Assembly (NCBI GenBank): GCA_025544715.1
Contig: GCA_025544715.1_4109.3
Length of the DNA: 64,000 nucleotides
Source: Escherichia coli
Lineage (GTDB): Bacteria > Pseudomonadota > Gammaproteobacteria > Enterobacterales > Enterobacteriaceae
Direction: 5' to 3' (one strand)
The notes below the pieces were generated by a model. The model searched no databases, was not told where the DNA came from, and saw nothing but the letters and a program-made list of their open reading frames with translations. Each line of letters opens with the position of its first letter. Positions within the stretch are counted from its first letter, which is position 1. The position numbers and the translations under genes are program-made. This document shows positions 33,173 through 55,196 of the stretch, in pieces.

Positions 33173-33643
33173 TTAAAAATCTTTATTTTTATATAGTATT
33201 CTTTGATTATTTGAACCACGGAAAGGTAATTTTAAATTCTTTTCGGACTCGATAAACTTACCATCAACTAATACATCTAAGTACTGAAGTATATCTTTAG
33301 AATGATTTTTCATAATCTCATCTAAAGTATACCCACTCCAGCACCAAATAGTTTTACTAGGATAAGTTTCTTTAACTACTTTGCATAGATTTAAAACTTC
33401 ATCTATATTCTTTTTCATTAATGGATCGCCGCCTAGAAGTGATAAACCACTAACATATGGTTTTTTTAGTTCCTGTAGTATAATCTCAACTGTTTCAGTA
33501 CTGAACTCTTGACCACTTCTGTAGTCCCATGCTTCTTCATTGAAGCAACCATCACATCCGTGCGAACACCCACTAACAAATAAAGAGCAGCGAACACCCT
33601 CTCCATTTACTAAATCATCCTTGATTATCGTCTGGTAATTCAT
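33173..33643 (-). CDS. nrdG: Anaerobic ribonucleotide reductase activating protein (radical SAM)
   Basis: CxxxCxxC cluster GCSHGCDGC near N-terminus; adjacent to nrdD. Confidence 0.85.
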   Translation of the reverse strand: MNYQTIIKDDLVNGEGVRCSLFVSGCSHGCDGCFNEEAWDYRSGQEFSTETVEIILQELKKPYVSGLSLLGGDPLMKKNIDEVLNLCKVVKETYPSKTIWCWSGYTLDEIMKNHSKDILQYLDVLVDGKFIESEKNLKLPFRGSNNQRILYKNKDF

Positions 33644-33947
33644 CTAATATTGCACTCACTATTTCGACAAGAACATCGCCGTGACATGATTTGGGTTTAC
33701 AGAAACAACCAAGGCGTTTCCCTGCGAGTTCAAGTAATTCATCAATCTTAACTTCTCCACAAGAAATACGTTCAATAATGTATTCTCTGAATTTTTCAAT
33801 TGATTCTTCTCTTGTACTAACAATGAATTCGGCTTTGGTTTGTTTATCTTTAATATGGGTAAATGGGTTTCCCCATTTAGACCCACGCCCAATATACACA
33901 TCATACGGTTCTTTGTATTTGTTAACCACAATTGGCTTTAAATCCAT
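33615..33947 (-). CDS. Conserved hypothetical protein between nrdD and nrdG (possibly DUF4326-like)
   Basis: YIGRGSKWGNPF motif; family name from memory. Confidence 0.4.
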   Translation of the reverse strand: MDLKPIVVNKYKEPYDVYIGRGSKWGNPFTHIKDKQTKAEFIVSTREESIEKFREYIIERISCGEVKIDELLELAGKRLGCFCKPKSCHGDVLVEIVSAILDELPDDNQG

Positions 33948-33955
33948 AATTTACC

Positions 33956-35824
33956 TTATTTGTGCTGAATACGCTCACAACACTCTTGTTGTTTGCCTTT
34001 ATTGAATCCACGCGAAGAAGGATTACCCAAGTAACCAGAAACACGACGAATCACTGAGATTGTCTTCTCATTACGATTATCACATACCGGACAGTGGAAA
34101 CCATGTTTATCTACACTGAACTCACCCTGGAAGCCACATTCATAACAATGGTCAACGGGTTGGTTAATACCAAAATATGGTATCTTCGTGTAAGCATAGT
34201 TAACTAATGTTTCAAGTGCTTGAATGTTGTTTGCTAAGTTTGGAGATTCAACATAACTGATGTTTCCACCGTTACTTAGGTAAGCAAAGCCTTCTTCATA
34301 ACTCCATTTATCAAATGGAGAACTTTCTACCCATACTGGTTGATGAAAGGAATTTGTGATGTAATCACGTTTTAGTACTGACGGATATTTTGCTTCAATA
34401 CAACGTGCAAATTTATAACAAAGTGACTCTGCTGGAGTTCCATATAGACTAAAAGCTATATTACTCTCTTTTTTGAACTCATCACATTTTACTTTCATAT
34501 AATTCAGTACTGACATACAAAACTCCTTACTGATAGAACCAGTGAGGATTTCTGAACATTCAACAAGTCCAACATAACCAATACTAATACTAGCATAACC
34601 ATTGTAAAATAGCTTGTCAATGGTTTCTTCTGCACCTAAACGTGCTAATGCACCTTCCATGAACAAAATTGGATTTTGCTTTGCTTTAGTGCCTTTTAAA
34701 CGCTCTACGCGGTTCATCTGAGCACGATATGCAATATTCATATGCTCGTCTATCTTATCAAAAAACTCTCCGTCAGAAGCACTCTCAAGAGCAATTAGAG
34801 GTAAATTGATAGAAACCACACCTAAATTGAAACGACCGTTGTATTGTTCATTTCCATTAGAATCTTCCCATTTTCCTAAGAATGAACGACAGCCCATCGG
34901 TGTTACCGCAGTACTACTACTTCCAGTCACTTTGTGATTTAATGGTACGGAAACAAAGTCAGGGTAGATTCGTTTTGATGCACAACGCATAGCTAACTGT
35001 TTAAGGTCATAATTACTATCATTGGTATTCATGTTTATACCATCTTGTAAAAAGAAAATTACTTTAGGAAACACTGGAGTAATCTTATCTTTACCTAAAC
35101 CATTCTCATGAACTTTTAAGTACTGTTCAGTGATTAATTTACCAAATTTAGAAGTGTTAAGACCTAAACTAAGAGAAATAAATGCAGCTTGACCATTAGT
35201 ACTAATCATTGAATTAGTTTGGTAAAGTAATGTTTGGCAGCCATCGTATACTTCTTTTCGTAGTTCTTCTTCAATGAATTCATCACTTAGATTATATTTC
35301 TTTTGTTTTTCTAACAGCTTATCCCATGACTTTTGAACGTAAGGTTCTAATCCGACATCAATGTGAGCCAAAGATTGACCACCATACTGGGAACTGGCAA
35401 CAGCTTGGACAATTTGTGTCAGTACTGTACATGCTACACTAAAACTCTTTGGTTCTTCAATTTTAGCACAACCAATGGTGAATCCATTTTTTAGCATATC
35501 TGGGTAGTTAACTAAGCAACAGTTGGTTAATGGGCTGATATAGTAGTCTAAATCATGGATATGACCATAACCATCATTATGCCACTGCATTAGCTCATTT
35601 GGAATAACATCTTGTGAATAATGCTTAGATAGGATACCTGCAAGTAAATCCCTGTGTGTATTGACGCATTTCGCATCTTTGTTCGCATTTTCGTTTGTAA
35701 GATCAGTATTGCTCTGATTGAGGAAATTCGTTACGTCAGTATATAATTTATCTAATTGCATTGTACATTCCTTGTATTTTGAAATCATCTGGGGGTGAAG
35801 ATATTTAATATCACCAGACAACAT
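33956..35824 (-). CDS. nrdD: Anaerobic ribonucleoside-triphosphate reductase
   Basis: C-terminal zinc ribbon CYECG...CPVC and glycyl-radical motif RRVSGYLG; uninterrupted 622 aa. Confidence 0.9.
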   Translation of the reverse strand: MLSGDIKYLHPQMISKYKECTMQLDKLYTDVTNFLNQSNTDLTNENANKDAKCVNTHRDLLAGILSKHYSQDVIPNELMQWHNDGYGHIHDLDYYISPLTNCCLVNYPDMLKNGFTIGCAKIEEPKSFSVACTVLTQIVQAVASSQYGGQSLAHIDVGLEPYVQKSWDKLLEKQKKYNLSDEFIEEELRKEVYDGCQTLLYQTNSMISTNGQAAFISLSLGLNTSKFGKLITEQYLKVHENGLGKDKITPVFPKVIFFLQDGINMNTNDSNYDLKQLAMRCASKRIYPDFVSVPLNHKVTGSSSTAVTPMGCRSFLGKWEDSNGNEQYNGRFNLGVVSINLPLIALESASDGEFFDKIDEHMNIAYRAQMNRVERLKGTKAKQNPILFMEGALARLGAEETIDKLFYNGYASISIGYVGLVECSEILTGSISKEFCMSVLNYMKVKCDEFKKESNIAFSLYGTPAESLCYKFARCIEAKYPSVLKRDYITNSFHQPVWVESSPFDKWSYEEGFAYLSNGGNISYVESPNLANNIQALETLVNYAYTKIPYFGINQPVDHCYECGFQGEFSVDKHGFHCPVCDNRNEKTISVIRRVSGYLGNPSSRGFNKGKQQECCERIQHK

Positions 35825-35898
35825 TATAGCGTCAGAACAGGTTATTTCTCTTGACCTATATCAAGGAAAAGTCACATTGGTTTTTATTTGCACAAATA

Positions 35899-35920
35899 GA
35901 AAAAGCACCACTAGGGTGCT
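35899..35920 (-). terminator. Rho-independent terminator upstream of nrdD
   Basis: Hairpin GCACC-loop-GGTGC then T5. Confidence 0.55.
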
Positions 35921-36037
35921 TTAAAGTACTGCTAATATAACAACTGCCCAAATTAACAGTAATACATTGGTTGGGGCTGAAAAAATCATATATGCAGCAA
36001 TTGCACTACAACCTATGACAAGTTTAGCTAGTCTCAT
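35921..36037 (-). CDS. Small hydrophobic peptide (38 aa), not in ORF track
   Basis: Own translation MRLAKLVIGCSAIAAYMIFSAPTNVLLLIWAVVILAVL; GGAG RBS; terminator immediately after. Confidence 0.3.
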   Translation of the reverse strand: MRLAKLVIGCSAIAAYMIFSAPTNVLLLIWAVVILAVL

Positions 36038-36209
36038 CTGGACTCCATGTAATAGTCACTGTGAACGTCCCTTCCTGAAAACCAAACTCATCTTGTGGGA
36101 TTTGTTCAGCTAATGGGTTAAATCTTGAATCGAAGGCTTCATGTACGTCTCTTTGAATATCATAGAGACTTTCACCATCATATTCTTTTTTAAATATTAC
36201 ACTTCCCAT
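36024..36209 (-). CDS. Hypothetical protein (61 aa)
   Basis: ORF in array. Confidence 0.35.
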   Translation of the reverse strand: MGSVIFKKEYDGESLYDIQRDVHEAFDSRFNPLAEQIPQDEFGFQEGTFTVTITWSPDETS

Positions 36210-36222
36210 AATATAACTCCTA

Positions 36223-36438
36223 CTACAAAACGTTACAGTAGAACTGAATGATGTAAGGAAATAAAGGATTATTTACGTATGTTGCAAAATTAGCTATTGT
36301 AACTTTTTTATAGTACGAGTTGTGAATTGTTATAATAGTGTGAGGATCTATTGATTCTCTATTAGAGAGTTCAACAAAACGCCCACACTTCATATAAGCC
36401 TTACCATAATAATCGTAAATTATATCGTATTTTTCCAT
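36223..36438 (-). CDS. Hypothetical protein (71 aa)
   Basis: ORF in array. Confidence 0.35.
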   Translation of the reverse strand: MEKYDIIYDYYGKAYMKCGRFVELSNRESIDPHTIITIHNSYYKKVTIANFATYVNNPLFPYIIQFYCNVL

Positions 36439-36798
36439 TTATTCAGGATCTTTGTTTTTATCAACTGTGTTGTTTTTATTCAAATCAATTTGTAAAGCCA
36501 TTGCAGCTTCAGCATTTTCTTCATGTGTGCCATTGAATTTATACCCATTCTTAATGAGATTCACTGTGTAGTACTTATTATAAAGAAATGCCCAAACGAT
36601 CATCGCAATAGTACCTACAATCCAAAAAGACACTGCGTTTAGGATGAAGTAAATTACAAATGCACCAATGAACGTAATAAAGTCACCACGGAACAATGCA
36701 GGGAAAGGTCCAAAAAATAATGTAGTCCAAGAAAAACCAAAGAAACCATCTTTGCGTTGTCCTACATTTTCATTTTTTAAAGAAATTGTTTTAGCCAT
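36439..36798 (-). CDS. Membrane protein (start likely MAKTISL at 36798)
   Basis: Two TM helices; motif GFSWTTLFFGPFPALFRG. Confidence 0.45.
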   Translation of the reverse strand: MAKTISLKNENVGQRKDGFFGFSWTTLFFGPFPALFRGDFITFIGAFVIYFILNAVSFWIVGTIAMIVWAFLYNKYYTVNLIKNGYKFNGTHEENAEAAMALQIDLNKNNTVDKNKDPE

Positions 36799-36808
36799 TT
36801 TTAATCTC

Positions 36809-37030
36809 CTACTTTTTATTTGGGTTTGGTATGCAGTACACAAATACTAAATGATTAAAATGTTCTGTATTCGCATACTTTGCTAAGTCGGTTATGATGA
36901 AGTTTGTATCTTTAAATCTGCCATCATTGAATGTTGTGATTTGAAAACGTAGTTCAGGTGCAAAAATATAATAATAGAATATATCATTTACACACCCAAC
37001 AGTATGTTTAGCATATCTTTCAATTTTCAT
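36809..37030 (-). CDS. Hypothetical protein (73 aa)
   Basis: ORF in array. Confidence 0.35.
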   Translation of the reverse strand: MKIERYAKHTVGCVNDIFYYYIFAPELRFQITTFNDGRFKDTNFIITDLAKYANTEHFNHLVFVYCIPNPNKK

Positions 37031-37395
37031 GTGTGGATGATCTCTTTTACCCCGTATTCATAGATTGCCAATGAGCAAATCTCACAAGGTTTTGCTGGAA
37101 CTGGAATTCCATCTTTACTTACACGAGCAATCAGAAGAGTATGAACTTCAGCACGTGCAGCAAGTAAACATGAAATTTCAGCATGAAGAAACTCACCTTG
37201 TGGTCGCCCAGCACGAATTGCGAAACCCTTCTGTACTGGGTGAGTCTGTGTATAAGAATTTGTGCGAGTTGCTAGTACTCTACCTTTTTTATCAAGTGCA
37301 CGAGCAATAACACGATACCGTTTGTAATTTCCTACTTGTTCAATAGGCGGCATCTGGCGTAATTCTTCGATTAGTTTCTCCAATTTACTATTCAT
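37027..37395 (-). CDS. Compact cytidine/dCMP-deaminase-fold zinc-binding protein
   Basis: HAE...PCEIC zinc-binding motifs with ~24 aa spacing. Confidence 0.55.
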   Translation of the reverse strand: MNSKLEKLIEELRQMPPIEQVGNYKRYRVIARALDKKGRVLATRTNSYTQTHPVQKGFAIRAGRPQGEFLHAEISCLLAARAEVHTLLIARVSKDGIPVPAKPCEICSLAIYEYGVKEIIHT

Positions 37396-38018
37396 AAGTC
37401 TAAGTCTATACCTTTTTCAATAGATTTCTCTAGAACCCAAAGTTTACATTCTTCACTCTCCAAATGTATCTTTGCCTCTTTCTGTTGTTCTATTGTACAA
37501 GACTTTATGAATTCACGCAAGGCTTCTATCGTATTTTTTAAATTTTTTATATCATCGATAATTTTTTCTTTGGTTTCTTCATCGATTACACATGAACTCC
37601 AACTGTGTCGTTCCTCCCAAACAGTTTTAGTAGGATTATAAATTGATGGAGTAGATTTGAATGCATGGATCTTATTAAAGGTATCGTCCGCTTCTTGTTG
37701 GGTGTAATCACCATATGTTCTTAGCACATTTTTGTATAATTCATCAATGGCCTCTTCATACGTATCACCACCACAATCCAATTGATAATCATGTGCTTGT
37801 ACCCATTCGTCGTCTTGCTCAATATACATTGGTGAAAGAAATTCTACCCAAAATTGATTCTTTGTATTCAATGCTTTGAAATCTTCAATTCGATTTGTCA
37901 TTGGACACACATCATGAGGTTCAATATCAATCCTAGCTGGAACCATATCTTTGTTTATGAATTTAGGATGACCCAAAATCCACCAGTACTTTTCCGATGT
38001 AGTCATAATAATCTCCAA
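37392..38018 (-). CDS. Hypothetical protein (208 aa)
   Basis: ORF in array. Confidence 0.45.
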   Translation of the reverse strand: MEIIMTTSEKYWWILGHPKFINKDMVPARIDIEPHDVCPMTNRIEDFKALNTKNQFWVEFLSPMYIEQDDEWVQAHDYQLDCGGDTYEEAIDELYKNVLRTYGDYTQQEADDTFNKIHAFKSTPSIYNPTKTVWEERHSWSSCVIDEETKEKIIDDIKNLKNTIEALREFIKSCTIEQQKEAKIHLESEECKLWVLEKSIEKGIDLDL

Positions 38019-38052
38019 TTAAAAAGTACTGCCCGTGATGGCAGTACTGATG

Positions 38053-38412
38053 TTAAACGTAACGTTTCTTTTTATAATCATACCCTACTGCTTTGTAAAA
38101 GTCAAACAAAGAAGCATGTTCAAATGTAGGTAATAGATCATATGGGTGCTGATAGTTCGCAATACCAACAATAGCCATCATTGATTCAGCAGTTCTTACG
38201 TTCTCACTATCCCATTCATCTAAACGCCAAAGTGAGCAAAGTACCTCTCGTTCATGTTGCTTACCCAGAAAGAATCCAGCTTCACGGTCACGAAATGCAC
38301 CTACACTGACAGTACTTTTGTACCAGTCTTTTTCACCATATAATGGCATACGGATAATATGTTTTTCTTTAGCTTCTCCAAAGCGATGAAGAAATGCTAC
38401 ATAATCACTCAT
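38053..38412 (-). CDS. Hypothetical protein (119 aa)
   Basis: ORF in array. Confidence 0.45.
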   Translation of the reverse strand: MSDYVAFLHRFGEAKEKHIIRMPLYGEKDWYKSTVSVGAFRDREAGFFLGKQHEREVLCSLWRLDEWDSENVRTAESMMAIVGIANYQHPYDLLPTFEHASLFDFYKAVGYDYKKKRYV

Positions 38413-38579
38413 AATTTATAACCCATTACAGGTTTGTTATGATCCGGTTCGTAAGACTTTTCAGTACTGAACCCTCTGAAATTACCACGTCCTGGATTTG
38501 GACAAGCCATCCCTTGTATTGAATGCTTACCCTTATCTTTGCCACAATTTTTACATTTGTAGCCAATTACTTCTTTCAT
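38409..38579 (-). CDS. Small zinc-ribbon protein (56 aa), not in ORF track
   Basis: Own translation MKEVIGYKCKNCGKDKGKHSIQGMACPNPGRG...; ATGA overlaps on both sides. Confidence 0.35.
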   Translation of the reverse strand: MKEVIGYKCKNCGKDKGKHSIQGMACPNPGRGNFRGFSTEKSYEPDHNKPVMGYKL

Positions 38580-38806
38580 TGTGCATCCTTCGGAACAGTA
38601 TTAAGACGTTTGCGATTCACAATCTTCCTGCACATGAGATTAAGATCTTGCCCATGACGCATAGTATGACATGCATATAGTGTTCCTTGATGATTTAGTT
38701 TTGTTAAACCTTGACGGATGATTTCAGCATCCATCTCATCAACTTTAGGAGCACAGCCACTGAGAAATACAATAGAAGAAATAATAAAAATATATAATAA
38801 TTTCAT
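38576..38806 (-). CDS. Small lipoprotein (76 aa)
   Basis: Signal peptide with lipobox FLSGC. Confidence 0.4.
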   Translation of the reverse strand: MKLLYIFIISSIVFLSGCAPKVDEMDAEIIRQGLTKLNHQGTLYACHTMRHGQDLNLMCRKIVNRKRLNTVPKDAQ

Positions 38807-38809
38807 AAT

Positions 38810-38989
38810 TTAATCACCTATACATAAGTACTCGATTGATGGTTTACCATTAACTAACACAATTCCAGTGTGAGTTAATACACAGTTGTCGGGAGCTTCT
38901 TCAAACACTGATACGTAAATGTATGAACCATTACTAACTGAACAAGATAATACCATAATAACTGCGATTAGTACAAGTAAAATTTTCAT
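38810..38989 (-). CDS. Small lipoprotein (59 aa), not in ORF track
   Basis: Own translation MKILLVLIAVIMVLSCSVSNG...; lipobox VLSC; ATGA overlap with upstream gene. Confidence 0.3.
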   Translation of the reverse strand: MKILLVLIAVIMVLSCSVSNGSYIYVSVFEEAPDNCVLTHTGIVLVNGKPSIEYLCIGD

Positions 38990-39645
38990 ATAAACCTACT
39001 TTTTGATTTATGTAATGCAATTTGTACTCGTGTAATGAACTCACGCTGTACTTCTTCAGCACTGTATCCTTCATATTGTGTCTTGAAAAGTTCCATTGCT
39101 TTTAGTGCCATCTGTACAGAAATGTCTGTAATACTTTCTGTACTGGTGCTTTCAAATACGTTTTTGAGAGTTAGTTCACCATCACAAACATCATCAACTA
39201 CAACTGGGGTATTGTTTTGTTCATCAATGTAACGTAAAGCTTTGTACTCTGCTTTTGTTAGATTTTCATACCAACGTGGGTGGTGGAACAAATCATGCAT
39301 TGTAACTTTTGCTGCTTCCATGAGAAGTAATAGCTCTTCATTTCTGCGAATATGTTTTTCTTCACCTTTATGATTTTTGTAAGTATATGCACAACGCATA
39401 ATGGCTAATCGAACTTCACCTGCTTTGGTGATAGTGTATGAATGTATTGCATTATCATAATCACTTTCCCATTTCTGACCAGCATATTCGTACCAAAGTT
39501 CATTAGTTTCCCATTTAATGAAATCAAATTCTAACAAACTGTCAATCAACTTAGCCAAATTACCACTGTACTCACGGCTAATGATATTGAAACCACCATT
39601 GTACTTTGCAAGGTACAGAATCTTTTCTTGAGTTACATTTTTCAT
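38986..39645 (-). CDS. Hypothetical protein (219 aa)
   Basis: ORF in array. Confidence 0.45.
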   Translation of the reverse strand: MKNVTQEKILYLAKYNGGFNIISREYSGNLAKLIDSLLEFDFIKWETNELWYEYAGQKWESDYDNAIHSYTITKAGEVRLAIMRCAYTYKNHKGEEKHIRRNEELLLLMEAAKVTMHDLFHHPRWYENLTKAEYKALRYIDEQNNTPVVVDDVCDGELTLKNVFESTSTESITDISVQMALKAMELFKTQYEGYSAEEVQREFITRVQIALHKSKSRFI

Positions 39646-46255: not shown

Positions 46256-46263
46256 TATAAATA
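46256..46263 (+). promoter_or_regulatory. T4-late-promoter-like box TATAAATA (plus strand)
   Basis: Exact octamer ~150 nt upstream of plus-strand gene start. Confidence 0.25.
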
Positions 46264-46409
46264 ATATAGTACTTAAACACTTAAGTCAAACTTTTTCTGT
46301 ACTTAACTCAAATTTCCCTCATCAGATAATCCCCTTAGTACAATCACTGTGAAGATTCTATCACAAACCCATACCAAATGTAAAGCTTTTTTTATAAGGA
46401 GTGCCCTTC

Positions 46410-48335
46410 ATGGGAAAACCAATTGCAGGACAAGACCAATTTCCATTCACTATAGGTGGATATTTAGTTGATGGTGCAAACATAAAAGGTACAACATATG
46501 TAAAATCGTTGTACATCTACAAACAGCGTTCCTCTGATTTGTATGATTTAATGGATTCAAATGGAACAATATATCGTTTTATTCGTATTGTTGGATATGG
46601 TCAAGATGGTAACAGATTAAATTATTTTACACCAGCAGAAGAAATTGTACCAAATCTGGCGACCAATACATTTTTTATAAAAGTTCAAGATGCTGAAAGA
46701 AATATATTTTCATTTGTTAGATTGTACCAATTAAATAAAATAATAACATTCGATGGTGATTATATTTTTAGAAAAATAGATAAAGATCGTTATCTAAGTG
46801 GTGTGTTAATTCAACCATCATTAACTACATTACAAGTTGGTAAAACCAGTTCACTGCATTGTGTATTCTACCCTAATGATTACTATGATACTGATGGAAC
46901 TTGGTACATAAACGACCATTCTGATATAAATCCAGAAATACCTAGTAAGTATGCTAAAATCATAGAATATAATAAAAATGAAGTATCTATTGAAGGAACA
47001 TCGGTGGGTATGTCAATACTTTCATTTGTTCCTAAAAATAATAAATCCATAATTTCACATTCTCTTATTAACATTGTTAATGAAAATGTAGATATAGAAT
47101 ACATGGTTGCCGAAAGAAGTTCTCCATTTTTTAATCATTATATTGGCAATGAATGGACTATTCAAATAGTCACATATCCGTATGACGCGACTATACAATA
47201 CCCTCTTGAAATCGTAATCGATGCGGAAGTAGATCCTTATATGAAAATTGCCACTACCGAGTTAGTTGGAGTCTCTGAAAATAATAAAATATATACATTT
47301 AAATCAACACTTGAGCCAGATTTAGAATATTATATAGATTATTATCCACAAATCACCTTCACTATGAATGAACCTTACAAATTTAGTGCATTGTTTGAAA
47401 ATAAAATTTGTTTGTCTGGTTGGGAAAGATATTGTGAAAAAATTACCAGTCCTGGAAAGTTATTTTCTATTGATGAATATGTACGTCCAAACACGACTAA
47501 AACATTAAAATATTGGTTAATGAATGATTATGACCAACATATGTATCCAATACGTTCAACTGATGATGAAATTGCCACAATTGATGTAACAACTGGTATA
47601 TTGAGAACTTACGATAAAAGAGGAACAGTATCTTTCTATACAAATTATACTGATATAACTACTGGGGCCATTAGTCAAGATGAATATTTAGTTGGGAAAC
47701 TAACCGTTACAGACGATGTGTACGATTTAATCGAGGTAGAACCATCAAATATACAATATATGTTCCCAAATCAATCACAACAATTCACGTTAACTGGTTA
47801 TAGAGAAGGTTATCCAAATACATCTTTTAATGTTAATGTAAGTATGTTGAACAATTATGCAACTTCTTCAAACAATATCGTCACTATTAACGAAAATACA
47901 TCTAATAACTCTAGATTTAAGATAGTATCAGATTTCAATGGTAATTATAAAAACTTTAGTAGTATATATTCTAATCAAACACCATCTATTATAGTAAAAA
48001 CAAATCCAAATGATTTAACTCCAATACAAAGTATTGATGTTTCTGAAAATGAAATTTTATCTATAAGAATGGCTGAAGAAAATGAAATAGATGATTATAA
48101 AGTTAGTTTTTATCCAAAACCAAATTATTGTGTTAATTATGAACTTGAAATTGTATCATATGATAATACTATAATTGAAATATATGATAAAGAAAATGCA
48201 TTAAAAAACGGGCTAAATTATTATGGTAATATTATGTTATACATAACACCAAAAAGTCCTGGAAGTACCGAGATTGTTGTTAGATCTGTTCATTACCCAG
48301 ATGTACAACAATCTGTAAAAGTAGTTGTTTATTAA
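46410..48335 (+). CDS. Plus-strand large protein (641 aa from ATG 46410), possible virion decoration/adhesin
   Basis: AGGAG RBS 9 nt upstream; N-terminal ~110 aa paralogous to next gene; Asn/Ser/Thr/Tyr-rich. Confidence 0.55.
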   Translation: MGKPIAGQDQFPFTIGGYLVDGANIKGTTYVKSLYIYKQRSSDLYDLMDSNGTIYRFIRIVGYGQDGNRLNYFTPAEEIVPNLATNTFFIKVQDAERNIFSFVRLYQLNKIITFDGDYIFRKIDKDRYLSGVLIQPSLTTLQVGKTSSLHCVFYPNDYYDTDGTWYINDHSDINPEIPSKYAKIIEYNKNEVSIEGTSVGMSILSFVPKNNKSIISHSLINIVNENVDIEYMVAERSSPFFNHYIGNEWTIQIVTYPYDATIQYPLEIVIDAEVDPYMKIATTELVGVSENNKIYTFKSTLEPDLEYYIDYYPQITFTMNEPYKFSALFENKICLSGWERYCEKITSPGKLFSIDEYVRPNTTKTLKYWLMNDYDQHMYPIRSTDDEIATIDVTTGILRTYDKRGTVSFYTNYTDITTGAISQDEYLVGKLTVTDDVYDLIEVEPSNIQYMFPNQSQQFTLTGYREGYPNTSFNVNVSMLNNYATSSNNIVTINENTSNNSRFKIVSDFNGNYKNFSSIYSNQTPSIIVKTNPNDLTPIQSIDVSENEILSIRMAEENEIDDYKVSFYPKPNYCVNYELEIVSYDNTIIEIYDKENALKNGLNYYGNIMLYITPKSPGSTEIVVRSVHYPDVQQSVKVVVY

Positions 48336-48351
48336 TAAGAGGAAATAAAAT

Positions 48352-48729
48352 ATGAAAGCTATAGCAGCACAAGGTAAATTACCATTCAATATCGGCGGCT
48401 TTTGTGTAACCGCAGCTAATATAAACGGTGAATTGAAATATAACTTGAACATCTTTAATCAACGTTCTAGTTGTGTTTACGATCTTATCGACACTGATTT
48501 TAATGTTTATCGTTTTGTAACTATAACAAGTTTTGATAAAGATAAAATCAGATTAGACGCATCTAAAACTGCACTAGAGATTGCACCAACTTTAGCAAAA
48601 AATACTTTTTGTATTAAGATTGATGATAGTGCATTTGCCGAATCATTCCAGTTTCATAAAATTAAATTGAGTACTGGAGAAATGAAATATCACCCTTGGG
48701 ATTTGTATTATTGTAACATCCCTGGTTAA
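48352..48729 (+). CDS. Plus-strand protein (125 aa), paralog of N-terminal domain of 46410-48335
   Basis: AAGAGGA RBS; shared blocks PFxIGG..., RSSxxYDL, YRFxxI. Confidence 0.55.
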   Translation: MKAIAAQGKLPFNIGGFCVTAANINGELKYNLNIFNQRSSCVYDLIDTDFNVYRFVTITSFDKDKIRLDASKTALEIAPTLAKNTFCIKIDDSAFAESFQFHKIKLSTGEMKYHPWDLYYCNIPG

Positions 48730-48730
48730 C

Positions 48731-48760: not shown

Positions 48761-49016
48761 ATTCTACAGTATTAAGCTTCTGACAAATCATGTCAGCTTC
48801 TACTCGGTCTTTATAATAAATGGTAAATCCAAATCTACTTGTTACCCTTTTCTCACTACGGTGTATACAGTTTACAATATAGTACTTATTATTTTGTGCA
48901 GAAAAACGAACTTCATAATTTCGAAAATAAGTATTAGGTTCATCTATAGCAACTATATATAACATAAAAATGAAAAGCACTATTATTAGAAAAGCAATAA
49001 TAATTATTACTGTCAT
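48759..49016 (-). CDS. Small membrane protein (85 aa)
   Basis: N-terminal hydrophobic helix. Confidence 0.4.
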   Translation of the reverse strand: MTVIIIIAFLIIVLFIFMLYIVAIDEPNTYFRNYEVRFSAQNNKYYIVNCIHRSEKRVTSRFGFTIYYKDRVEADMICQKLNTVE

Positions 49017-49504
49017 TTATCAAGACCCTTATCATAAATGCAATTAACAATAATTCCAGCATCTTCCAGTACTTTAATAGCTTCTGGTGGTGTACGAGGA
49101 TAATTTTTGAGATAAATTACACGTGAAATACCACTACCCGCAATCAACTTAGAACAAGTATAACATGGTTGTAGTGTTGTGTAAAGAGTAGCACCTTGAC
49201 GTTCAGTAGGAGAACTATAGAGTAAAGCGTTCATTTCGGCATGGATTTCATGAATATTACTCCACTCATGATGTTGATGCTTTGCTTCATCACTAACCCA
49301 GTCTTGAAAAGACCCATCATTTACTAAGTGTTGATTCACGTCACAGCAATTTGGTTGTTTTGATGGAGTACCATTGTATCCAGTACTCAATACTCGATTA
49401 TTTTTAACAATAACACAACCAACTTTTTGTGAAATACATTTACTTTCCTCAGCAACTACTTCTGCTATCTTCAACCAAGTCGTATGTTTCATTATAAGCT
49501 CCAA
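49013..49504 (-). CDS. cd: dCMP deaminase
   Basis: HAEMNAL...PCYTCSKLIAGSGISRVIY and N-terminal VGCVIVKNNRVLSTGYNG. Confidence 0.8.
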   Translation of the reverse strand: MELIMKHTTWLKIAEVVAEESKCISQKVGCVIVKNNRVLSTGYNGTPSKQPNCCDVNQHLVNDGSFQDWVSDEAKHQHHEWSNIHEIHAEMNALLYSSPTERQGATLYTTLQPCYTCSKLIAGSGISRVIYLKNYPRTPPEAIKVLEDAGIIVNCIYDKGLDK

Positions 49505-49973
49505 TACTTAACAATGCGTTTTTACACAAATCATGAATTTTCATAACTCGAATATAGTTTAACACATCTGTTTCATTAATTTCAAATGGTTTATCTGCAT
49601 ATGTAGACCACGTTTGATTTAATTCAATAACAAATGTAATTTTATCTGTATCCATAATATTATCACAAAATCTACGAAAATCTTGCTCTTCATCGGAAAG
49701 TCTGAAATTTAAATCATTTTTTAAACCATTAACTGTGAAGCAAATACCAGTACTGTAACCTATGCAAATATCTTCAATATCATATAATCCATAAATTAAT
49801 TTAGAGATAAACGTGCTATATTTGTTTCTATGATAATAGTTTAATATTTCTTTTTTAATATTATTTTCAATATCAGTAGTTTTTTGTAATGTAAGTTTAA
49901 TTAATTCTAATGTCTTGATTATGTTATCTAACCAGATATTAGTATCATCTATACTTAGGTGTGTGTATTTCAT
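49449..49973 (-). CDS. Hypothetical protein (174 aa)
   Basis: ORF in array. Confidence 0.4.
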   Translation of the reverse strand: MKYTHLSIDDTNIWLDNIIKTLELIKLTLQKTTDIENNIKKEILNYYHRNKYSTFISKLIYGLYDIEDICIGYSTGICFTVNGLKNDLNFRLSDEEQDFRRFCDNIMDTDKITFVIELNQTWSTYADKPFEINETDVLNYIRVMKIHDLCKNALLSIGAYNETYDLVEDSRSSC

Positions 49974-50499
49974 TATGTCCCTCTAGATTCCAATCATCAA
50001 CGAGTTTAGAACAAACTTCCATATGATTATAGTACTTTTCATTCAATACATAAGGTTTATTATGATATTGTCGTACATCAGTGAATATATCATAATTTCT
50101 ATATATGAATGACATATTTTTGTGCATGAATTCTATAGTTTTCCAAATCTTTTCTATATCATATAAAATTGTTTTTAATGATAAACCTGTAAGCTTTGAA
50201 ATTCTTTCAACTTTAAAACCGGATAACATCATAGTATTATTGTGTTTAGTCAAATAACTATATCCAATTGAACTATGTATCATTTCTACACTATCAACTT
50301 GTGTTATTGTTTTTAAAAATGACTTTAAATTTCTATTAAACCAATACCACTTTTTGTTTTTATTATAACATGAATACCATTTCTTCAATATATCAATTGC
50401 TTCAGAATTAATTTTCAAAGCAAACTCATCAATTAAAAACATATGATGATAAAAAATATCACTTTGTTCTTCAGTTAAATTATATTGCTGCATATTCAC
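49945..50499 (-). CDS. Hypothetical protein (184 aa)
   Basis: ORF in array. Confidence 0.4.
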   Translation of the reverse strand: MNMQQYNLTEEQSDIFYHHMFLIDEFALKINSEAIDILKKWYSCYNKNKKWYWFNRNLKSFLKTITQVDSVEMIHSSIGYSYLTKHNNTMMLSGFKVERISKLTGLSLKTILYDIEKIWKTIEFMHKNMSFIYRNYDIFTDVRQYHNKPYVLNEKYYNHMEVCSKLVDDWNLEGHNEIHTPKYR

Positions 50500-50576
50500 C
50501 TACCCTAGTAACAATGATTCCTTGGGTATTTAGCTTATATAGATCATTTTTTGATCGATGAAAATTGATATACAGC

Positions 50577-50606
50577 AATAAAAAGAGGAATCCAGTACTG
50601 GATTCC
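50577..50606 (-). terminator. Terminator formed by 20-nt perfect palindrome GGAATCCAGTACTGGATTCC
   Basis: Perfect palindrome centred on CAGTACTG; T-rich tract follows on minus strand. Confidence 0.55.
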
Positions 50607-50617
50607 TATTTGTAATA

Positions 50618-51064
50618 TTATTTTTGATATGGGGTGTACTGATATTTTTCACAATCAGAAACAGTTAGGACACCTTCATCATAACCATATTGAAGTACAA
50701 GGTCAAATGCTTTATCAACCATAGCAACAACATCTTTATAACGAACAATCTTATGAGATTGATTCTCAACTGCTTTCATAATCCCCATTAGCAACCAGCG
50801 ACCTTCATCGGTGTGTAATTTAGCAAAACGTGGACGCTTTGTTGCTGCCATAATATCAGTCCATTCAGCTTTAAAAATGTGTGGACGTTTTGGAATATCA
50901 TATAGTGTAGTAGGGAAAGTTACATTATTTTTCTTCATTGCTTCTGCTTGTGCTGCACGATAGCCCTGACGATATAATGGATGCTGCATTTTTAGCTGTT
51001 CAGCACTTAGAACTACTTTTGCTTTGTATGCGTCATAACCATCTTTATATTGTGCATTGGACAT
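50618..51064 (-). CDS. Hypothetical protein (148 aa)
   Basis: ORF followed by palindromic terminator. Confidence 0.45.
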   Translation of the reverse strand: MSNAQYKDGYDAYKAKVVLSAEQLKMQHPLYRQGYRAAQAEAMKKNNVTFPTTLYDIPKRPHIFKAEWTDIMAATKRPRFAKLHTDEGRWLLMGIMKAVENQSHKIVRYKDVVAMVDKAFDLVLQYGYDEGVLTVSDCEKYQYTPYQK

Positions 51065-51065
51065 A

Positions 51066-51383
51066 TTATTCTTTTACCTCATCAGTTTGAATGTATTTTT
51101 TGTCAGAGAATGTACCGTGTTCTTTACGCACAGCTTCTGCATGTTGAACCGCATCAACTGGATTAATGTTCTTTTTAATTAGTACTTCTTTCATTAATTC
51201 AAGTACAATTGCAAAACCATTTAGTACACGCTCAGATTCATCCACATTTTTTAACTCAAGTGCTACTGCACTAATTTGATCGAACGCAACATTAATAAAA
51301 TCGGAATCTTCTAATACATTTGCTACTTCCGTATTATTACGTACTAGTACTTTCATATAATCTCCACAAAGATGATGCCCCAA
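51066..51383 (-). CDS. Hypothetical protein (105 aa)
   Basis: ORF in array. Confidence 0.45.
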   Translation of the reverse strand: MGHHLCGDYMKVLVRNNTEVANVLEDSDFINVAFDQISAVALELKNVDESERVLNGFAIVLELMKEVLIKKNINPVDAVQHAEAVRKEHGTFSDKKYIQTDEVKE

Positions 51384-51404
51384 ATTGAGGCATCAAAATC
51401 TATC

Positions 51405-52100
51405 TTACACCCACTCTTCCACACCACCGCGACGCTTAACTAAGTACTTGCCTTCTTCGTTACGTGGTCCAAGAATAATACCATCAATGAAACCATGTTC
51501 ACCATATTCAAGTGCTTCTTCTGCATTTAACCACAAATCTCGGTCAGCATCTTTTAGTAATTGTTCATGTGATACACCTACTGCTTCTGCAATTTCTTTG
51601 GTCAACAATGTATTCAGTGCATCAGAATGTTGTAGTGAAATCTTCTGGTCTGTAATTAGACCTTGTGTACCAGAACTTACTTGGTGACACATGAAGTATG
51701 AGCGTTTACCACCTAAACGGAAACCTTTAGTTCCAATAACAGATTGTGTATAGCAACCCATTGATGCTGCATAACCCATAACTACAGTGCGAATTGGGGA
51801 AATACAAGACTTAGCAACGTCTGCAATACCCAAACCTGCGTGTACTGAACCACCTGGTGAACTAATGTAGAATGTAATAGGGGAATCACCTTGTGAGTCT
51901 AACCACACCAATTGTTGTTTGATGATATGTGCCATTTGATCATTGAAATCAGTATCAAGGAAAATGATACGGTCTTGCATCATACGAGATGCTAGATCAT
52001 ATGTACGTTCTGAACCATTAACTTTCTCAACTACGTAAGGAATAGAAATGTTACGTACTTCGCCATTAGCATAACCACCAAACATGAATTGTTCAACCAT
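51405..52100 (-). CDS. clpP: ATP-dependent Clp protease proteolytic subunit
   Basis: ISSPGGSVHAG, GYAASMG (Ser) and MCHQ (His) in ClpP order. Confidence 0.8.
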   Translation of the reverse strand: MVEQFMFGGYANGEVRNISIPYVVEKVNGSERTYDLASRMMQDRIIFLDTDFNDQMAHIIKQQLVWLDSQGDSPITFYISSPGGSVHAGLGIADVAKSCISPIRTVVMGYAASMGCYTQSVIGTKGFRLGGKRSYFMCHQVSSGTQGLITDQKISLQHSDALNTLLTKEIAEAVGVSHEQLLKDADRDLWLNAEEALEYGEHGFIDGIILGPRNEEGKYLVKRRGGVEEWV

Positions 52101-52164
52101 TGTTAATTTCCTCTATTATTTCGTTGTTGTGAGTATTATATCACTAAGATTTAAAATGTCCAAA

Positions 52165-52587
52165 CTATTTTACTGGAATATTTGAAAAGAAATCAGTCAT
52201 CCAATACGCCGTTTCTTTGTTGAATAATACTGGATCAAACTTAAGTAACTCAACATGACTTGTATCATACACGCTTGTATCGGTAATGTCAAACAAAGTT
52301 TTAGTACTGAATAGTGGGTTACTCACTAGAAAGTAGTAATCAGCAGTACTGCTAATGTCATCATAAAACACACCGTCATACCATCCATCATCATATACAA
52401 AAACAGAATCGTCTTGAAGATAGTAAACTTCTATATGTAAACTCAAGATCTTCATGGTTTCAATCATTTTTGCCGTATGAGGATTTAACTTATTGACATT
52501 TTCAAACACATAAGAGTGTTTTTCATTCATATCAACAAATGAAAATATTCGTACTGCACGTATATTCATATTACTCCAAATAAACAA
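52165..52587 (-). CDS. Hypothetical protein (140 aa)
   Basis: ORF in array. Confidence 0.45.
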   Translation of the reverse strand: MFIWSNMNIRAVRIFSFVDMNEKHSYVFENVNKLNPHTAKMIETMKILSLHIEVYYLQDDSVFVYDDGWYDGVFYDDISSTADYYFLVSNPLFSTKTLFDITDTSVYDTSHVELLKFDPVLFNKETAYWMTDFFSNIPVK

Positions 52588-52954
52588 GTGAATTAATGAA
52601 ATCGTATTTCAATTTATCATCCACATCATTTAAATCAACTTTAATCATCGGAGAATGGGAACGTATAGACAGTGTTTCCATAAAGTACTGATTAAGTTTG
52701 TATGTATGGAAAAGATGAGTATCACCTTTCATCACCACCAACACTTCCCCGAACAGATCACTGAGTTCAACTTCAGTACCACTTGAGTTAAACCCATAAC
52801 GATTCTTTAATGTACGTGGTTCTTTATTTCGATAATAATGCACAGCTTTATTACTATTCACTAACAAGTGATGATATGCATTACTATAAACTGAGCAAAT
52901 AACTCGGCTTGGATAATTGGTATATTCTGGTAGTTCAAAATAAATCAATGACAC
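52571..52954 (-). CDS. Hypothetical protein (127 aa)
   Basis: ORF in array. Confidence 0.45.
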   Translation of the reverse strand: MSLIYFELPEYTNYPSRVICSVYSNAYHHLLVNSNKAVHYYRNKEPRTLKNRYGFNSSGTEVELSDLFGEVLVVMKGDTHLFHTYKLNQYFMETLSIRSHSPMIKVDLNDVDDKLKYDFINSLVYLE

Positions 52955-52966
52955 TGTATCCTCACA

Positions 52967-53770
52967 TTAAATTTCAAATACAAATTTAGGATTGTAATCA
53001 AAATTCTCACAAGCTCCACTATACGATTCATAGCCTCGTGGATTACAAATGATACGTGTCTTACCAATGTGGTAGTCAAAGCTACTATGAACATGACCAT
53101 GAATCCAAACATCAGCACCCAAATCTTCAATGTACTGATCCATATCGGAACAGTAACAACCATTCAGTGAATCATTTTTATATTTTGGTGAAACACTTTG
53201 ATAACTTGGTGCGTGATGAGTAACCACGATGACCTTGAAATCATTATCATGCATAAAGCGAACTGTGTCAATAGAATTTTTGATAAATTGTTTATCTTTG
53301 TGATGCATAAACTCAGTATCATCAGGTGTCAGTTTCTTACGCCAAGGCTCGGTTGTTGTTCCATGACGGATATGTTTGTAATCGTTCATCTTCTGACGAG
53401 CATCAAACTTCGTCAAAGAATTACCTTTATCGAAGTCTGTCCACAGAGTACTACCAACAAGCAGTACTCCATCCAGCCATACAAATTTGTTTTGCAAAAA
53501 GATGAAATTTGGAATCTCATCTTGCATATCGGACAGTACTTTATGCGTTTTGATGATATTGGAACCATAATATTCATGATTGCCAGGAACCAGTACTACA
53601 TTTTTGAACTGCTTACACAGTGATTCGATACCAGTACGGTAACGACTGCGTTTAACTTCATCGAAGTCCCCAGCAATGATCAGTACTGTATCACTGTAAT
53701 CACCACTATGGAGGTAATCAGTGCCACCGTGTACATCAGATGTTACAACAAATTTCATAATTACCTCCAA
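52967..53770 (-). CDS. Calcineurin-like metallophosphoesterase
   Basis: Motifs DVHG, GDFD, GNHE, GHVH. Confidence 0.7.
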   Translation of the reverse strand: MEVIMKFVVTSDVHGGTDYLHSGDYSDTVLIIAGDFDEVKRSRYRTGIESLCKQFKNVVLVPGNHEYYGSNIIKTHKVLSDMQDEIPNFIFLQNKFVWLDGVLLVGSTLWTDFDKGNSLTKFDARQKMNDYKHIRHGTTTEPWRKKLTPDDTEFMHHKDKQFIKNSIDTVRFMHDNDFKVIVVTHHAPSYQSVSPKYKNDSLNGCYCSDMDQYIEDLGADVWIHGHVHSSFDYHIGKTRIICNPRGYESYSGACENFDYNPKFVFEI

Positions 53771-53777
53771 TAAATGG

Positions 53778-55196
53778 TTAACCTAATGATTCAATAATAC
53801 TGTTTGAGAACACTTCAACCGCACTCTCACGAATTTCTAAGATACGAGTATAATCGTCACAAGTGTTTTTGTCAAATCTAAATTCAATAAACACAGGTAA
53901 GAACAGTGATGGTTCACCAGTACGCTTGTCGAATACAATGTCATTACACTCAACAGTAACCACTTTACCAATAAGTTCTTGCATTCTTTCCCAAATGGTT
54001 TTAAATGTCCATTCAGCATCTTTTTCGCGGATGCCTGTTCCTACGCTTACTTTTAGTGTACCACAAGCACTTTCCAGTTGTAAAGAACCAAGCATACCTT
54101 TACGTTTACCTTCACCTTTATTGAAACCAACAATACGCAAGTCCAGTTGCATTTTCAATTTCATTTTCAACTGCTTAGGAGAAGTATGAGATTTCCAGAT
54201 ACCATCTTCACATTTCAGTACTGAACCTTCTTCACCTTCAGCCATGAGTTCGCTATTGTACTCAAATGCTTCTTTGATATTTTGGACTTTACGATAACCT
54301 ACCATACGAACAAATTCACTACCCAATGCATTGATTGCACCTTCAAGAATCTCTCGGCGTTCTTTACGTTTTACATTCCATACACCTTCACAGAAAGCAT
54401 CATATGGCACGACATCCCATAGAACGAATACTGTACGCATTGCTTCGCTTTGGTTAATGGTATCCTTACCTGCTTTCTGAATGATCCCGTTGCCAGTTGT
54501 ACGTGGTAGAATAGTTTCCCCATCAGTATCAAGTACCAACCCTTCCCCCATAAAGACTACACCACTACTGAAACGTTCATCTTTACTTTGGATGATGTGA
54601 GCAAGACCTGCCATCTCACCATCACGACAACCCAGGAAGTCGTACAGTTTGCCATTACGGGATGTAGAAGTTAATGAACCATTAATGACAACGTGGTTCA
54701 AGTACTGACCATCCATTTTCACTTCTGATATAGCGTAACCATAATCTTTGAAGTTGATGTTCTTTGCAGTCTTTTTGTCAATCAAAGAACAACGCATATA
54801 TGGTTCGTCTTTGATGAATCCTTTACCAAACACATCATTGCAGTTCTTCTCCTGAATACCACAATCAAGGTTCTTAGTGAGCATTTTACGGAGAACTTCC
54901 TGATCATCTTCAGATACAGAACCCAGTACTGAAGCAATGAAATCACGCCCCGCATTTCCTGTCACATCACGCTTGTAAATGCATTCCAGCTTATCAATTG
55001 CTTCATCTAACGTCATATGTTGATATACGTCATCAGCGACTGGTAGCTTCTTATAGCCACTTACGATAGAAGGGTCGAGAGTATATTTCAGAACTTTTTG
55101 TAAAGTTACATTATCTTTATTTTGTTCAAGAATAGCCTTTTTGCCCAGAGTACTGCTAGTATTTTTAATGCTTTCAAGAATTGCTAAAATGCTCAT
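53778..55196 (-). CDS. ATP-dependent DNA ligase
   Basis: Adenylation motif EVKMDG; size and organisation like T4 gp30. Confidence 0.8.
   Translation of the reverse strand: MSILAILESIKNTSSTLGKKAILEQNKDNVTLQKVLKYTLDPSIVSGYKKLPVADDVYQHMTLDEAIDKLECIYKRDVTGNAGRDFIASVLGSVSEDDQEVLRKMLTKNLDCGIQEKNCNDVFGKGFIKDEPYMRCSLIDKKTAKNINFKDYGYAISEVKMDGQYLNHVVINGSLTSTSRNGKLYDFLGCRDGEMAGLAHIIQSKDERFSSGVVFMGEGLVLDTDGETILPRTTGNGIIQKAGKDTINQSEAMRTVFVLWDVVPYDAFCEGVWNVKRKERREILEGAINALGSEFVRMVGYRKVQNIKEAFEYNSELMAEGEEGSVLKCEDGIWKSHTSPKQLKMKLKMQLDLRIVGFNKGEGKRKGMLGSLQLESACGTLKVSVGTGIREKDAEWTFKTIWERMQELIGKVVTVECNDIVFDKRTGEPSLFLPVFIEFRFDKNTCDDYTRILEIRESAVEVFSNSIIESLG

Follow-up and report, generated by a model that had tools for sequence, protein, structure and literature searches.

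The palindromic hexamer AGTACT is hyperabundant in the 64,000-nucleotide stretch of DNA analyzed here (the window; Escherichia coli assembly GCA_025544715.1, contig GCA_025544715.1_4109.3), and longer palindromic variants of it recur in unrelated genes. The hyperabundance is real and clade-wide, is very probably selected, has arisen convergently, and appears to be previously undescribed, with no description of an AGTACT motif found in the searchable literature, including jumbo-phage searches, the coverage of which was incomplete. On balance, the best overall explanation is that the long variants are by-products of a selected hexamer, which is similar in kind to the highly iterated palindromes (HIPs) of cyanobacteria and is predicted to have a symmetric protein reader. 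Slices of 6 and 24 kb from the window match the Asteriusvirus jumbo coliphages (121Q, PBECO4, phAPEC6, E9.1, and others) at 95–97% identity, and by this match the window is assigned to Asteriusvirus jumbo coliphage DNA. The window has a GC content of 0.31–0.36, and its 109 open reading frames (ORFs), 105 of which are on the minus strand, extend over 92% of its length. Genome-wide counts refer to the complete 121Q genome (348.5 kb, 903 AGTACT sites). The motif is distributed over the window as follows.

Positions 1–64000: AGTACT field of 148 hexamers, 36 of them CAGTACTG; 136 lie in ORFs and 12 are intergenic.

AGTACT, which is the ScaI site, is the top 6-mer of the window, with an 8.5-fold excess over the first-order Markov (dinucleotide) expectation (148 copies versus 17.4 expected), and it is the sole palindrome with an observed/expected ratio above 2, the next highest ratio being 1.7. 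The 8-mer CAGTACTG is found 36 times versus 0.79 expected. The 903 sites of 121Q compare with an expectation of 100 and are spread over the whole genome, with 11–65 sites per 10-kb bin and no empty bin. The resulting density in the phage is one site per 385–430 bp, compared with about one per 17 kb in the host (E. coli K-12, 3 sites in 50 kb with 4.8 expected). The motif is about as dense between genes as within them, the 7.4% of the window that is non-coding holding 8.1% of the sites, and the 136 genic sites are distributed over the three codon phases (56 encoding Ser-Thr, 51 x-Val-Leu, and 29 Gln/Lys/Glu-Tyr-x). In a synonymous-codon shuffle with protein sequences and codon usage held fixed, the window genes contained 30.2 ± 5.1 sites compared with the 136 observed, and the 121Q ORFs 177 compared with 736 (z = 54), an enrichment of 4.2–4.5-fold across the two. 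The one-mismatch neighbors of AGTACT occur at 0.7–1.6-fold under the same null, indicating sharp specificity. The encoded dipeptides are themselves inflated 1.4–1.6-fold (ST 113 versus 83, VL 154 versus 103, QY 58 versus 37), whereas the reversed dipeptides TS, LV, and YQ are not, and the pressure for the motif has thus altered proteins by raising the dipeptides that it encodes.

The sites are conserved between related phages. AGTACT was retained more often than control hexamers in comparisons at 83% identity (66% versus 39%), 76% identity (58% versus 24%), and 72% identity (45% versus 16%). When third-codon positions of codons with conserved first and second bases were pooled over three relatives at 72–83% identity, synonymous identity was 0.875 within the hexamer compared with a background of 0.655. 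Third-codon positions in the sites gave 0.87–0.89 versus 0.57–0.71 elsewhere in the three more diverged comparisons and 0.86 versus 0.82 in the comparison with UE-S1, the closest relative, and first and second codon positions in the sites showed no consistent excess conservation. Individual sites turn over while the total density stays constant, and the lost and gained sites involve many types of change, including transversions (AGAACT in 29 and TGTACT in 23 of 113). The hexamer is very probably maintained by selection at the level of DNA. The initial annotation had proposed a dyad-symmetric motif, and the flanking bases bear this out, the preference for C at position −1 (74 of 148 window sites) being equaled by that for G at +1 (68 of 148) despite the skewed composition of the strands. 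The constraint on the DNA is two-fold symmetric and strictly hexamer-specific, is either selected or kept by a restoring process that mimics selection, and favors high density. Outside the early-gene region of 121Q the spacing of the sites is roughly exponential, and cooperative arrays or periodic spacing were rejected on this basis, which applies to short-range arrangements only.

Enrichment of 8–12-fold was observed in Asteriusvirus (six genomes), Alcyoneusvirus K64-1, Eneladusvirus pEa_SNUABM_12, and Mimasvirus GAP32, and the motif is thus enriched in every Enterobacterales-infecting RaK2-like genus sampled. Counts for the remaining genomes were made per 50 kb, as for K-12. The Pseudomonas relative PA5oct is depleted (positions 100001–150000, 3 AGTACT versus 14.3 expected), Agrobacterium phage Atu_ph07 is low (3 versus 6.7), and T4 is normal (12 versus 8.8). 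Coliphage PHB05 has no AGTACT at all in its positions 1–50000 compared with 15.1 expected, and its HindIII, PvuII, and PstI sites are likewise at zero, a pattern that looks like ordinary restriction avoidance. The purging of AGTACT by PHB05 and PA5oct suggests frequent AGTACT-specific restriction in these hosts.

A second group of AGTACT-rich viruses was found when IMG/VR was scanned for two nearby copies of CAGTACTG, which returned, beside jumbo-phage records, many contigs of 25–34 kb with 4–5 AGTACT per kb and a GC content of 0.37–0.45. These represent a family of lambda-like temperate siphoviruses of 31–34 kb with a GC content of about 0.42; the Enterobacterales-like genomes in which they are integrated have a GC content of about 0.55. 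Examples are the following.

IMGVR_UViG_2927261028_000001 and 3300011647_000020: members of the prophage family in IMG/VR.
DALZZJ010000001 and DDPH01000003: members in contigs of metagenome-assembled genomes at NCBI.
Ga0122312_100040: member contig in JGI metagenome 3300011236.

The prophage genes include a large serine recombinase, a gpA-type large terminase, a lambda-like tail tube, a tape measure protein, and a tail-tip fiber, and the flanking host genes follow the order of E. coli trhO-yceI-yceJ-yceO-solA, with 72% identity. A 31-kb representative contains 140 AGTACT versus 8.6 expected and 59 CAGTACTG versus 0.5, with all three codon phases used. The host DNA on either side (GC 0.55–0.56) has 0–2 sites, and host composition as the cause of the prophage motif was therefore rejected. 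The pooled prophage half-sites (C at −1, 0.57; G at −1, 0.07; T at −3 and −4, 0.42–0.44) match those of the jumbo coliphages. Lysozyme is the only protein common to the prophage family and 121Q, even at E < 1, and no Pfam DNA-binding or methyltransferase domain was detected in the prophage early region, so that a reader gene shared by the two was rejected as an explanation. Judged from their gene content, the prophage family and the jumbo phages are unrelated and have converged on the same hexamer and flank bias. The nearest cultured relative of the prophages is the siphovirus-like part of Escherichia phage DCP80 (36–40% amino-acid identity), which has a normal AGTACT content. A subtractive comparison with DCP80 was dropped because of this low identity and because the record (PQ671644.1, positions 1–50000) looks chimeric. 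Its first 26 kb or so carry lambda-like terminase, tape measure, and tail genes and the remainder is T4-like (motA, ndd, and rIIA), with rIIA occurring twice in opposite orientations.

A scan of contigs for triple CAGTACTG yielded no AGTACT-rich host genome among the matches listed. Three copies of CAGTACTG within about 54 bp were recurrent, among the same matches, in single members of the Bacteroidales (Paraprevotella, Tannerellaceae, and Parabacteroides) and in Rhodococcus and Nocardia, and these arrays are probably unrelated dispersed repeats or operators.

In the mechanism that seems most likely, AGTACT would be recognized by a protein of two-fold symmetry that reads strictly this hexamer, whether an enzyme of the restriction-modification type or a small DNA-binding dimer. 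With a site every 400 bp or so, such a protein would mark or coat the phage chromosome at a density about 40 times that of host DNA, and its occupancy of the same site in the spacers of early promoters would block RNA polymerase. We infer, with moderate confidence, that a site-specific symmetric protein of this kind rather than a repair drive is the agent. Whether the reader would be encoded by the host or by the phage is evenly balanced, and a host-encoded reader is possible because the unrelated prophage family converged on the motif with no candidate reader gene in common with 121Q. A more far-reaching and tentative possibility, which we regard as doubtful, is that the high AGTACT density is a convergent signature of self, with a single AGTACT-reading host factor determining what becomes of DNA as it enters the cell or replicates. 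A nuclease acting in defense, a modification enzyme, or a protein involved in silencing or in the nucleoid might fill this role, and the RaK2-like jumbo myoviruses and the temperate siphoviruses of about 33 kb would have loaded their genomes with the motif independently. If this were true, Chi and HIP1 would have in AGTACT a counterpart that is viral and palindromic and whose host is open to genetic dissection. If a protein reader exists, CAGTACTG should be distinguished from CAGTTCTG, or AGTACT should be modified or cleaved in virion or replicating DNA, and TTCAGTACTGAA should be preferred to TTCAGTTCTGAA, with little dependence on the flanks beyond ±1.

Several observations weigh against a selected hexamer with a symmetric protein reader. 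No AGTACT reader was identified, the annotated phage methyltransferases being a C5-cytosine enzyme and a phage Dam, and no Enterobacterales protein of AGTACT specificity was identified here; the host protein SlmA shares the core but needs different flanks. RaK2 DNA has been reported to carry methylated CpG (data not shown in the source) (PMC3622015), which does not fit AGTACT. The early region of the prophages has no methyltransferase or DNA-binding domain recognizable with Pfam. The motif is unused in other coliphages and is purged by PHB05, which argues against a general benefit to the host, and the different ±1 preferences of the phage genera are awkward for a single conserved host reader. 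The neighbors AATACT/AGTATT are mildly depleted (0.83-fold, z = −4.8), so that biased repair may contribute. The ORF calls, moreover, come from a simple heuristic made for this analysis. The C5-cytosine methyltransferase of 121Q, gp91, was tried as the reader and set aside, as homologues are present in PHB05-like phages with no AGTACT (the PHB05 enzyme is 51% identical) and RaK2 methylation is at CpG; the target-recognition domains differ, and this rejection is therefore not decisive.

The alternative that survives best, although we consider it unlikely, is a biased repair or mutational drive tied to a methyltransferase, as in the HIP model of Elhai or in very-short-patch repair at Dcm sites, by which mismatched near-cognate sequences would be repaired to AGTACT and the motif would accumulate without being useful. 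Cyanobacterial HIPs co-occur with methyltransferases of matching specificity (PMC4390886), 121Q has both C5-cytosine and Dam-type methyltransferase genes, and the transition neighbor AATACT/AGTATT noted above is the most significantly depleted of the neighbors. The motif is also missing from recently acquired cargo, as gradual accumulation predicts. However, the prophage family that converged on the motif yielded no methyltransferase in the Pfam search of its early region, and the methylation reported for RaK2 is at CpG. The neighbor deficits add up to about 100, too few for an excess of about 560 sites, other one-mismatch neighbors are enriched, and the losses and gains of sites are heterogeneous, with transversions among them. 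A drive acting through a single transition, like very-short-patch repair, was disfavored because one-mismatch neighbors show no broad depletion and the variants at lost and gained sites are of many kinds, and it is retained as a minor rival only. Positional conservation and synonymous constraint also argue for selection, as Xu et al. argued for HIP1 (PMC5861425), but a restoring drive could nonetheless mimic conservation.

The long variants that recur in the window are TTTCAGTACTGAAC, a 14-mer with exactly three copies, all on the plus strand, and CCAGTACTGG, a 10-mer with four copies compared with 0.03 expected. Shuffled sequences gave 0.00 copies of the 14-mer. The copies are located as follows.

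Positions 21787–21796: CCAGTACTGG, in the gene for a 929-aa tail protein.
Positions 27089–27098: CCAGTACTGG, in the gene for a 909-aa hypothetical protein.
Positions 33493–33506, plus strand: first copy of TTTCAGTACTGAAC, in the nrdG homologue (ORF 33173–33643), encoding EFSTET on the gene strand.
Positions 38459–38472, plus strand: second copy of TTTCAGTACTGAAC, in a 56-aa hypothetical ORF (38409–38579), encoding GFSTEK.
Positions 50586–50607, minus strand: perfect palindrome AGGAATCCAGTACTGGATTCCT, containing the fourth copy of CCAGTACTGG, with AGTACT at the apex of a hairpin; intrinsic terminator of ORF 50618–51064.
Positions 54213–54226, plus strand: third copy of TTTCAGTACTGAAC, in the DNA ligase gene (53778–55196) in a different codon phase, encoding GSVLKC.
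Positions 55651–55660: CCAGTACTGG, in the gene for a 399-aa hypothetical protein.

All of these sequences had been listed by the initial annotation and were found where it placed them, and the genes that it named for the three 14-mers (nrdG, a hypothetical gene, and DNA ligase) were confirmed. Its description of a 20-nt palindrome at 50587–50606 that doubles as a terminator is correct as to the terminator hairpin; the length is 22 nt. Its claim that identical 14-mers are not expected by chance holds against a plain shuffle but is only nominally borne out in the window once the number of cores is taken into account, and not at all across 121Q, and its further suggestion of a functional site exceeding 8 bp failed on flank information, 14-mer recurrence, synonymous constraint, and flank drift. 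Given 36 copies of CAGTACTG and 148 of AGTACT, the triple 14-mer in the window is nominally unusual (P = 0.02–0.03), and the recurrence of 10-mers and 12-mers is unremarkable (P = 0.15–0.48). For the 164 CAGTACTG sites of 121Q outside the early region, tested against a null of independent flank columns, the 14-mers are at expectation, with a top multiplicity of 3 versus 3.7 and 27 identical pairs versus 28.6. The palindromes of 10–14 bases are thus, with little doubt, chance by-products of the large AGTACT population. With 903 copies in 121Q, a roughly two-fold preference for the C/G flanks, and a faint T/A-rich bias farther out, a few sites would be expected to share 10–14 bases by chance.

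A functional site of 12–14 bp or longer, for example a dyad operator of the type TTTCAGTACTGAAA/C to which a dimeric protein binds, with the 6–8-mers as degenerate copies, is very unlikely. The three identical 14-mers and four identical 10-mers do exist, the window test is nominally significant, and the outer flanks have a faint but statistically real bias, T-rich from −2 to −4 and A-rich from −7 to −9 (0.02–0.03 bit each, n = 1806). AGTACT with 3–4-nt flanks is also slightly non-independent, with 547 identical pairs versus 433. However, when all sites were aligned (296 half-sites in the window and 1806 in 121Q), the information at ±1, with C before and G after, was 0.33–0.39 bit (about 0.35 in the window), and no position farther out exceeded 0.03 bit, the refuting outcome that the initial annotation had set in advance; everything beyond ±1 totals about 0.15 bit per half-site. 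The two half-sites behave independently, with 51 complementary ±1 pairs versus 49.7 expected, and the extension of the palindrome past the hexamer equals that of randomly re-paired flanks, the terminator hairpin being the sole outlier. Synonymous identity at ±1 to ±5 (0.69, 0.72, 0.67, 0.71, and 0.61) stays close to the background of 0.655, with no constraint past the core. At orthologous positions the flanks drift. A flank substitution in the ligase copy leaves 121Q with two of the three 14-mers, the flanks of the nrdG copy vary (TTA.. in Ec-M-J, a 3-nt deletion on the left side in Turkey5) with the core kept in most relatives, and the +1 G of the CCAGTACTGG copy at 27089 is T or C in Ec-M-J, EJP2, and an Erwinia phage, where AGTACT is retained. 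The copy at 38459–38472 is identical in 121Q, UE-S1, and Ec-M-J, the three closest relatives aligned, and its region is unaligned in more distant ones. The preference at −1 also shifts between genera, with C favored by the phages of E. coli and Klebsiella, A by Erwinia phage pEa_SNUABM_12 (AAGTACTT, A/T), and A and C about equally by Cronobacter phage GAP32. Because this preference is lineage-specific, the unit conserved across genera is the hexamer and not the 8-mer.

Binding of the sites by SlmA, the nucleoid-occlusion protein of the host (consensus GTGAGTACTCAC), by which the phage would block host division or titrate SlmA, deserves very little credence. AGTACT does form the center of the SlmA site (PMC3020112), and enrichment was found only in the Enterobacterales phages sampled and not in the Pseudomonas and Agrobacterium relatives. 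However, SlmA requires G1, T2, A4, and G5 and a purine at position 3, with the first three positions flanking a core of AGYRCT (PMC3020112), and the phage sites have T, T/C, and C where SlmA needs G, T, and a purine, with −1 being C in 46–57% of half-sites and G, the rarest base there, in 3–8%, and −3 being mostly T. The pattern GTNAGTACTNAC fits 2 of the 903 sites in 121Q, about the level expected from independent flanks, and GTGAGTACTCAC fits none.

Some copies of AGTACT are parts of transcription signals. In addition to the palindrome at 50586–50607, the window contains two such elements.

Positions 38025–38048, minus strand: terminator-like hairpin, AGUACUGCC-loop-GGCAGUACU followed by UUUUU.
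Positions 46261–46289, minus strand: sigma-70-like promoter, TTGACT-N17-TATTAT, with AGTACT at 46268–46273 in the spacer.

The sequence at 50586–50607 satisfies the description of an intrinsic terminator, with a CUUUUUAUU tail on the minus strand and a position 11 nt past the stop of ORF 50618–51064. The terminator scan gave a 9-bp stem, a 4-nt loop, and the tail CTTTTTATTG, CTTTTTATT follows directly after AGGAATCCAGTACTGGATTCCT on the gene (minus) strand, and the RNA hairpin has a folding energy of −12.5 kcal/mol (z = −3.4). Most of the stem is retained in UE-S1, Ec-M-J, and Turkey5, in which the apex is not AGTACT, indicating that the terminator predates the motif copy. In the hairpin at 38025–38048, the AGTACT copies at 38025–38030 and 38043–38048, 18 bp apart, pair as a 9-bp stem (−15.0 kcal/mol, z = −4.2). 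The AGTACT at 46268–46273 lies one base upstream of the −10 element, a placement also seen in the early promoters of 121Q. In these promoters AGTACT takes fixed positions, adjoining either the −10 element (TTGACA-spacer-AGTACTGTATAAT) or the −35 element (AAAAGTACTTGCAA), and some have two copies 22 bp apart that bracket the −35. 121Q has 19 forward and 4 reverse occurrences of the pattern AGTACTGNATAAT, and 21 and 2, respectively, of TTGACA-N8-11-AGTACT. The density of AGTACT in 121Q peaks in this early-gene region (130–150 kb), at 65 per 10 kb.

These copies, and the frequent Ser-Thr and Val-Leu dipeptides, could be taken to mean that the motif acts on RNA, peptides, or gene signals, whether through a preference for certain codon pairs or dipeptides, as an element of promoters or terminators, or as a site for an RNase or RNA-binding protein. 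We regard such an action as highly improbable as the general cause. The density is similar in the three codon phases and in intergenic DNA. At about one per 400 bp, the sites are mostly well inside genes, where promoters and terminators are unexpected, and their flank preferences are symmetric between the two strands even though these are differently composed and almost every gene is on one of them. The dipeptide excess is directional (ST and not TS), as if the DNA drives the protein, and a peptide or codon-pair origin was rejected for this reason and because all three phases are used. Descent of the long identical versions from a small repeated or mobile element by duplication or gene conversion can be practically discounted: the early region of 121Q does repeat promoter and terminator cassettes with AGTACT (44 pairs sharing 14-mers versus 2 under the null), but sharing outside that region equals the null, and the three 14-mers and four 10-mers of the window lie in unrelated genes and different codon phases and are alike only in the listed bases. 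The 14-mers have no similarity outside their 14 bases and use two phases (FSTE twice, SVLK once), and they are thus neither duplications nor a peptide motif.

One segment of the window lacks the motif.

Positions 46274–48669, ORFs on the plus strand: longest AGTACT-free stretch, 2.4 kb, GC 0.29.

At the mean window density about 5.6 sites would be expected here. The segment holds two of the four plus-strand ORFs of the window (641 and 125 aa, the other two being small at 87 and 56 aa), in neither of which a Pfam family was found. Little of it is present in 121Q, UE-S1, Ec-M-J, and Turkey5 (aligned fraction 0–0.25), and by this comparison it is probably recent cargo at a variable locus that has not yet acquired the motif.

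Beside the one hyperabundant palindrome, 26 six-base palindromes, mostly GC-rich, are at zero in the window, including CAGCTG, CTGCAG, CCATGG, GCATGC, GGATCC, GGTACC, and TGGCCA, each with 5–8 expected, and TGATCA and ACATGT are strongly depleted. The missing palindromes represent classical restriction avoidance. The 31-kb prophage avoids largely the same set. With respect to codon usage, AGT makes up 34% of the Ser codons in the window, a share inflated by the motif, and 121Q is annotated with a tRNA-Ser of anticodon ACT (75464–75555), which would read AGT.

Where a core is strongly enriched, verbatim repeats of 10–14 bases are poor evidence of meaning. Hyperabundant palindromes have been an unsolved puzzle since HIP1, and the present case is tractable, with culturable coliphages (121Q, PBECO4, and phAPEC6), clear selection, a sharp phylogenetic boundary, and a convergent small prophage. 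The questions of what reads a highly iterated palindrome and why its density matters are thereby approachable by ordinary E. coli genetics. The jumbo phages described here are therapeutic candidates and, with about 900 ScaI-type sites, should either be unusually sensitive to restriction systems that cut AGTACT or have specific protection against them.

Among known systems, protein p6 of phage phi29 coats the genome and represses early promoters, reading DNA bendability and not a word, and the ribbon-helix-helix repressor MetJ binds tandem arrays of the 8-bp palindromic metbox AGACGTCT. The likeness to these is a functional analogy only, in that AGTACT sites occur genome-wide and in the spacers and −35 flanks of early promoters and are of a size suited to a small dimer; in contrast to metboxes, they are mostly solitary, and no such protein was identified here. 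Chi, KOPS, and uptake sequences are likewise short words kept dense by selection and read by a DNA-processing machine, and they can serve as a signature of self, but they are asymmetric and orientation-skewed, whereas AGTACT is palindromic and has no polarity. The target of a Type IIP restriction-modification system is also an exact palindrome of 6 bp that is recognized with sharp specificity and hardly depends on its flanks, and the purging of AGTACT by phages of the same or related hosts (PHB05 and PA5oct) is the usual signature of a restriction target. However, the motif is enriched and not avoided in the phages described here, and no gene for an AGTACT-specific methyltransferase or endonuclease was identified. 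The SlmA-binding sequence (SBS) is a 12-bp palindrome with AGTACT at its center, is scattered over the chromosome, and is read by a symmetric dimer of the TetR family in a taxonomic range that overlaps the hosts of the AGTACT-rich phages. It differs in that the phage sites show no enrichment of G1, T2, or a purine at position 3, where they mostly have C (PMC3020112), and in number, with about 50 SBS in E. coli compared with 903 AGTACT in 121Q.

The closest known phenomenon is HIP1 (GCGATCGC), the hyperabundant palindrome of cyanobacteria, which occurs in all frames, has a stronger 6-bp core, and is conserved by selection (PMC4390886, PMC5861425). The two differ in composition, HIP1 being GC-rich and AGTACT AT-rich, and in their carriers, as AGTACT hyperabundance is a feature of viruses (temperate siphoviruses of one family as well as lytic jumbo phages) and not of their hosts, and arose twice. 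The enrichment is 8–16-fold for the AGTACT hexamer and 45–110-fold for the 8-mer, compared with 15–300-fold for HIP1, and no methyltransferase of matching specificity was identified for AGTACT. In other respects the likeness is close. Hyperabundance, independence of reading frame beyond codon usage, and conservation, three of the properties that define the HIP type, are all found for AGTACT. Each is a short perfect palindrome that is hyperabundant genome-wide, within genes in all frames and between them, with a 6-bp inner core and weaker outer positions, and the same kind of test that showed HIP1 sites to be conserved beyond neutral expectation (PMC5861425) gave the same result for AGTACT.

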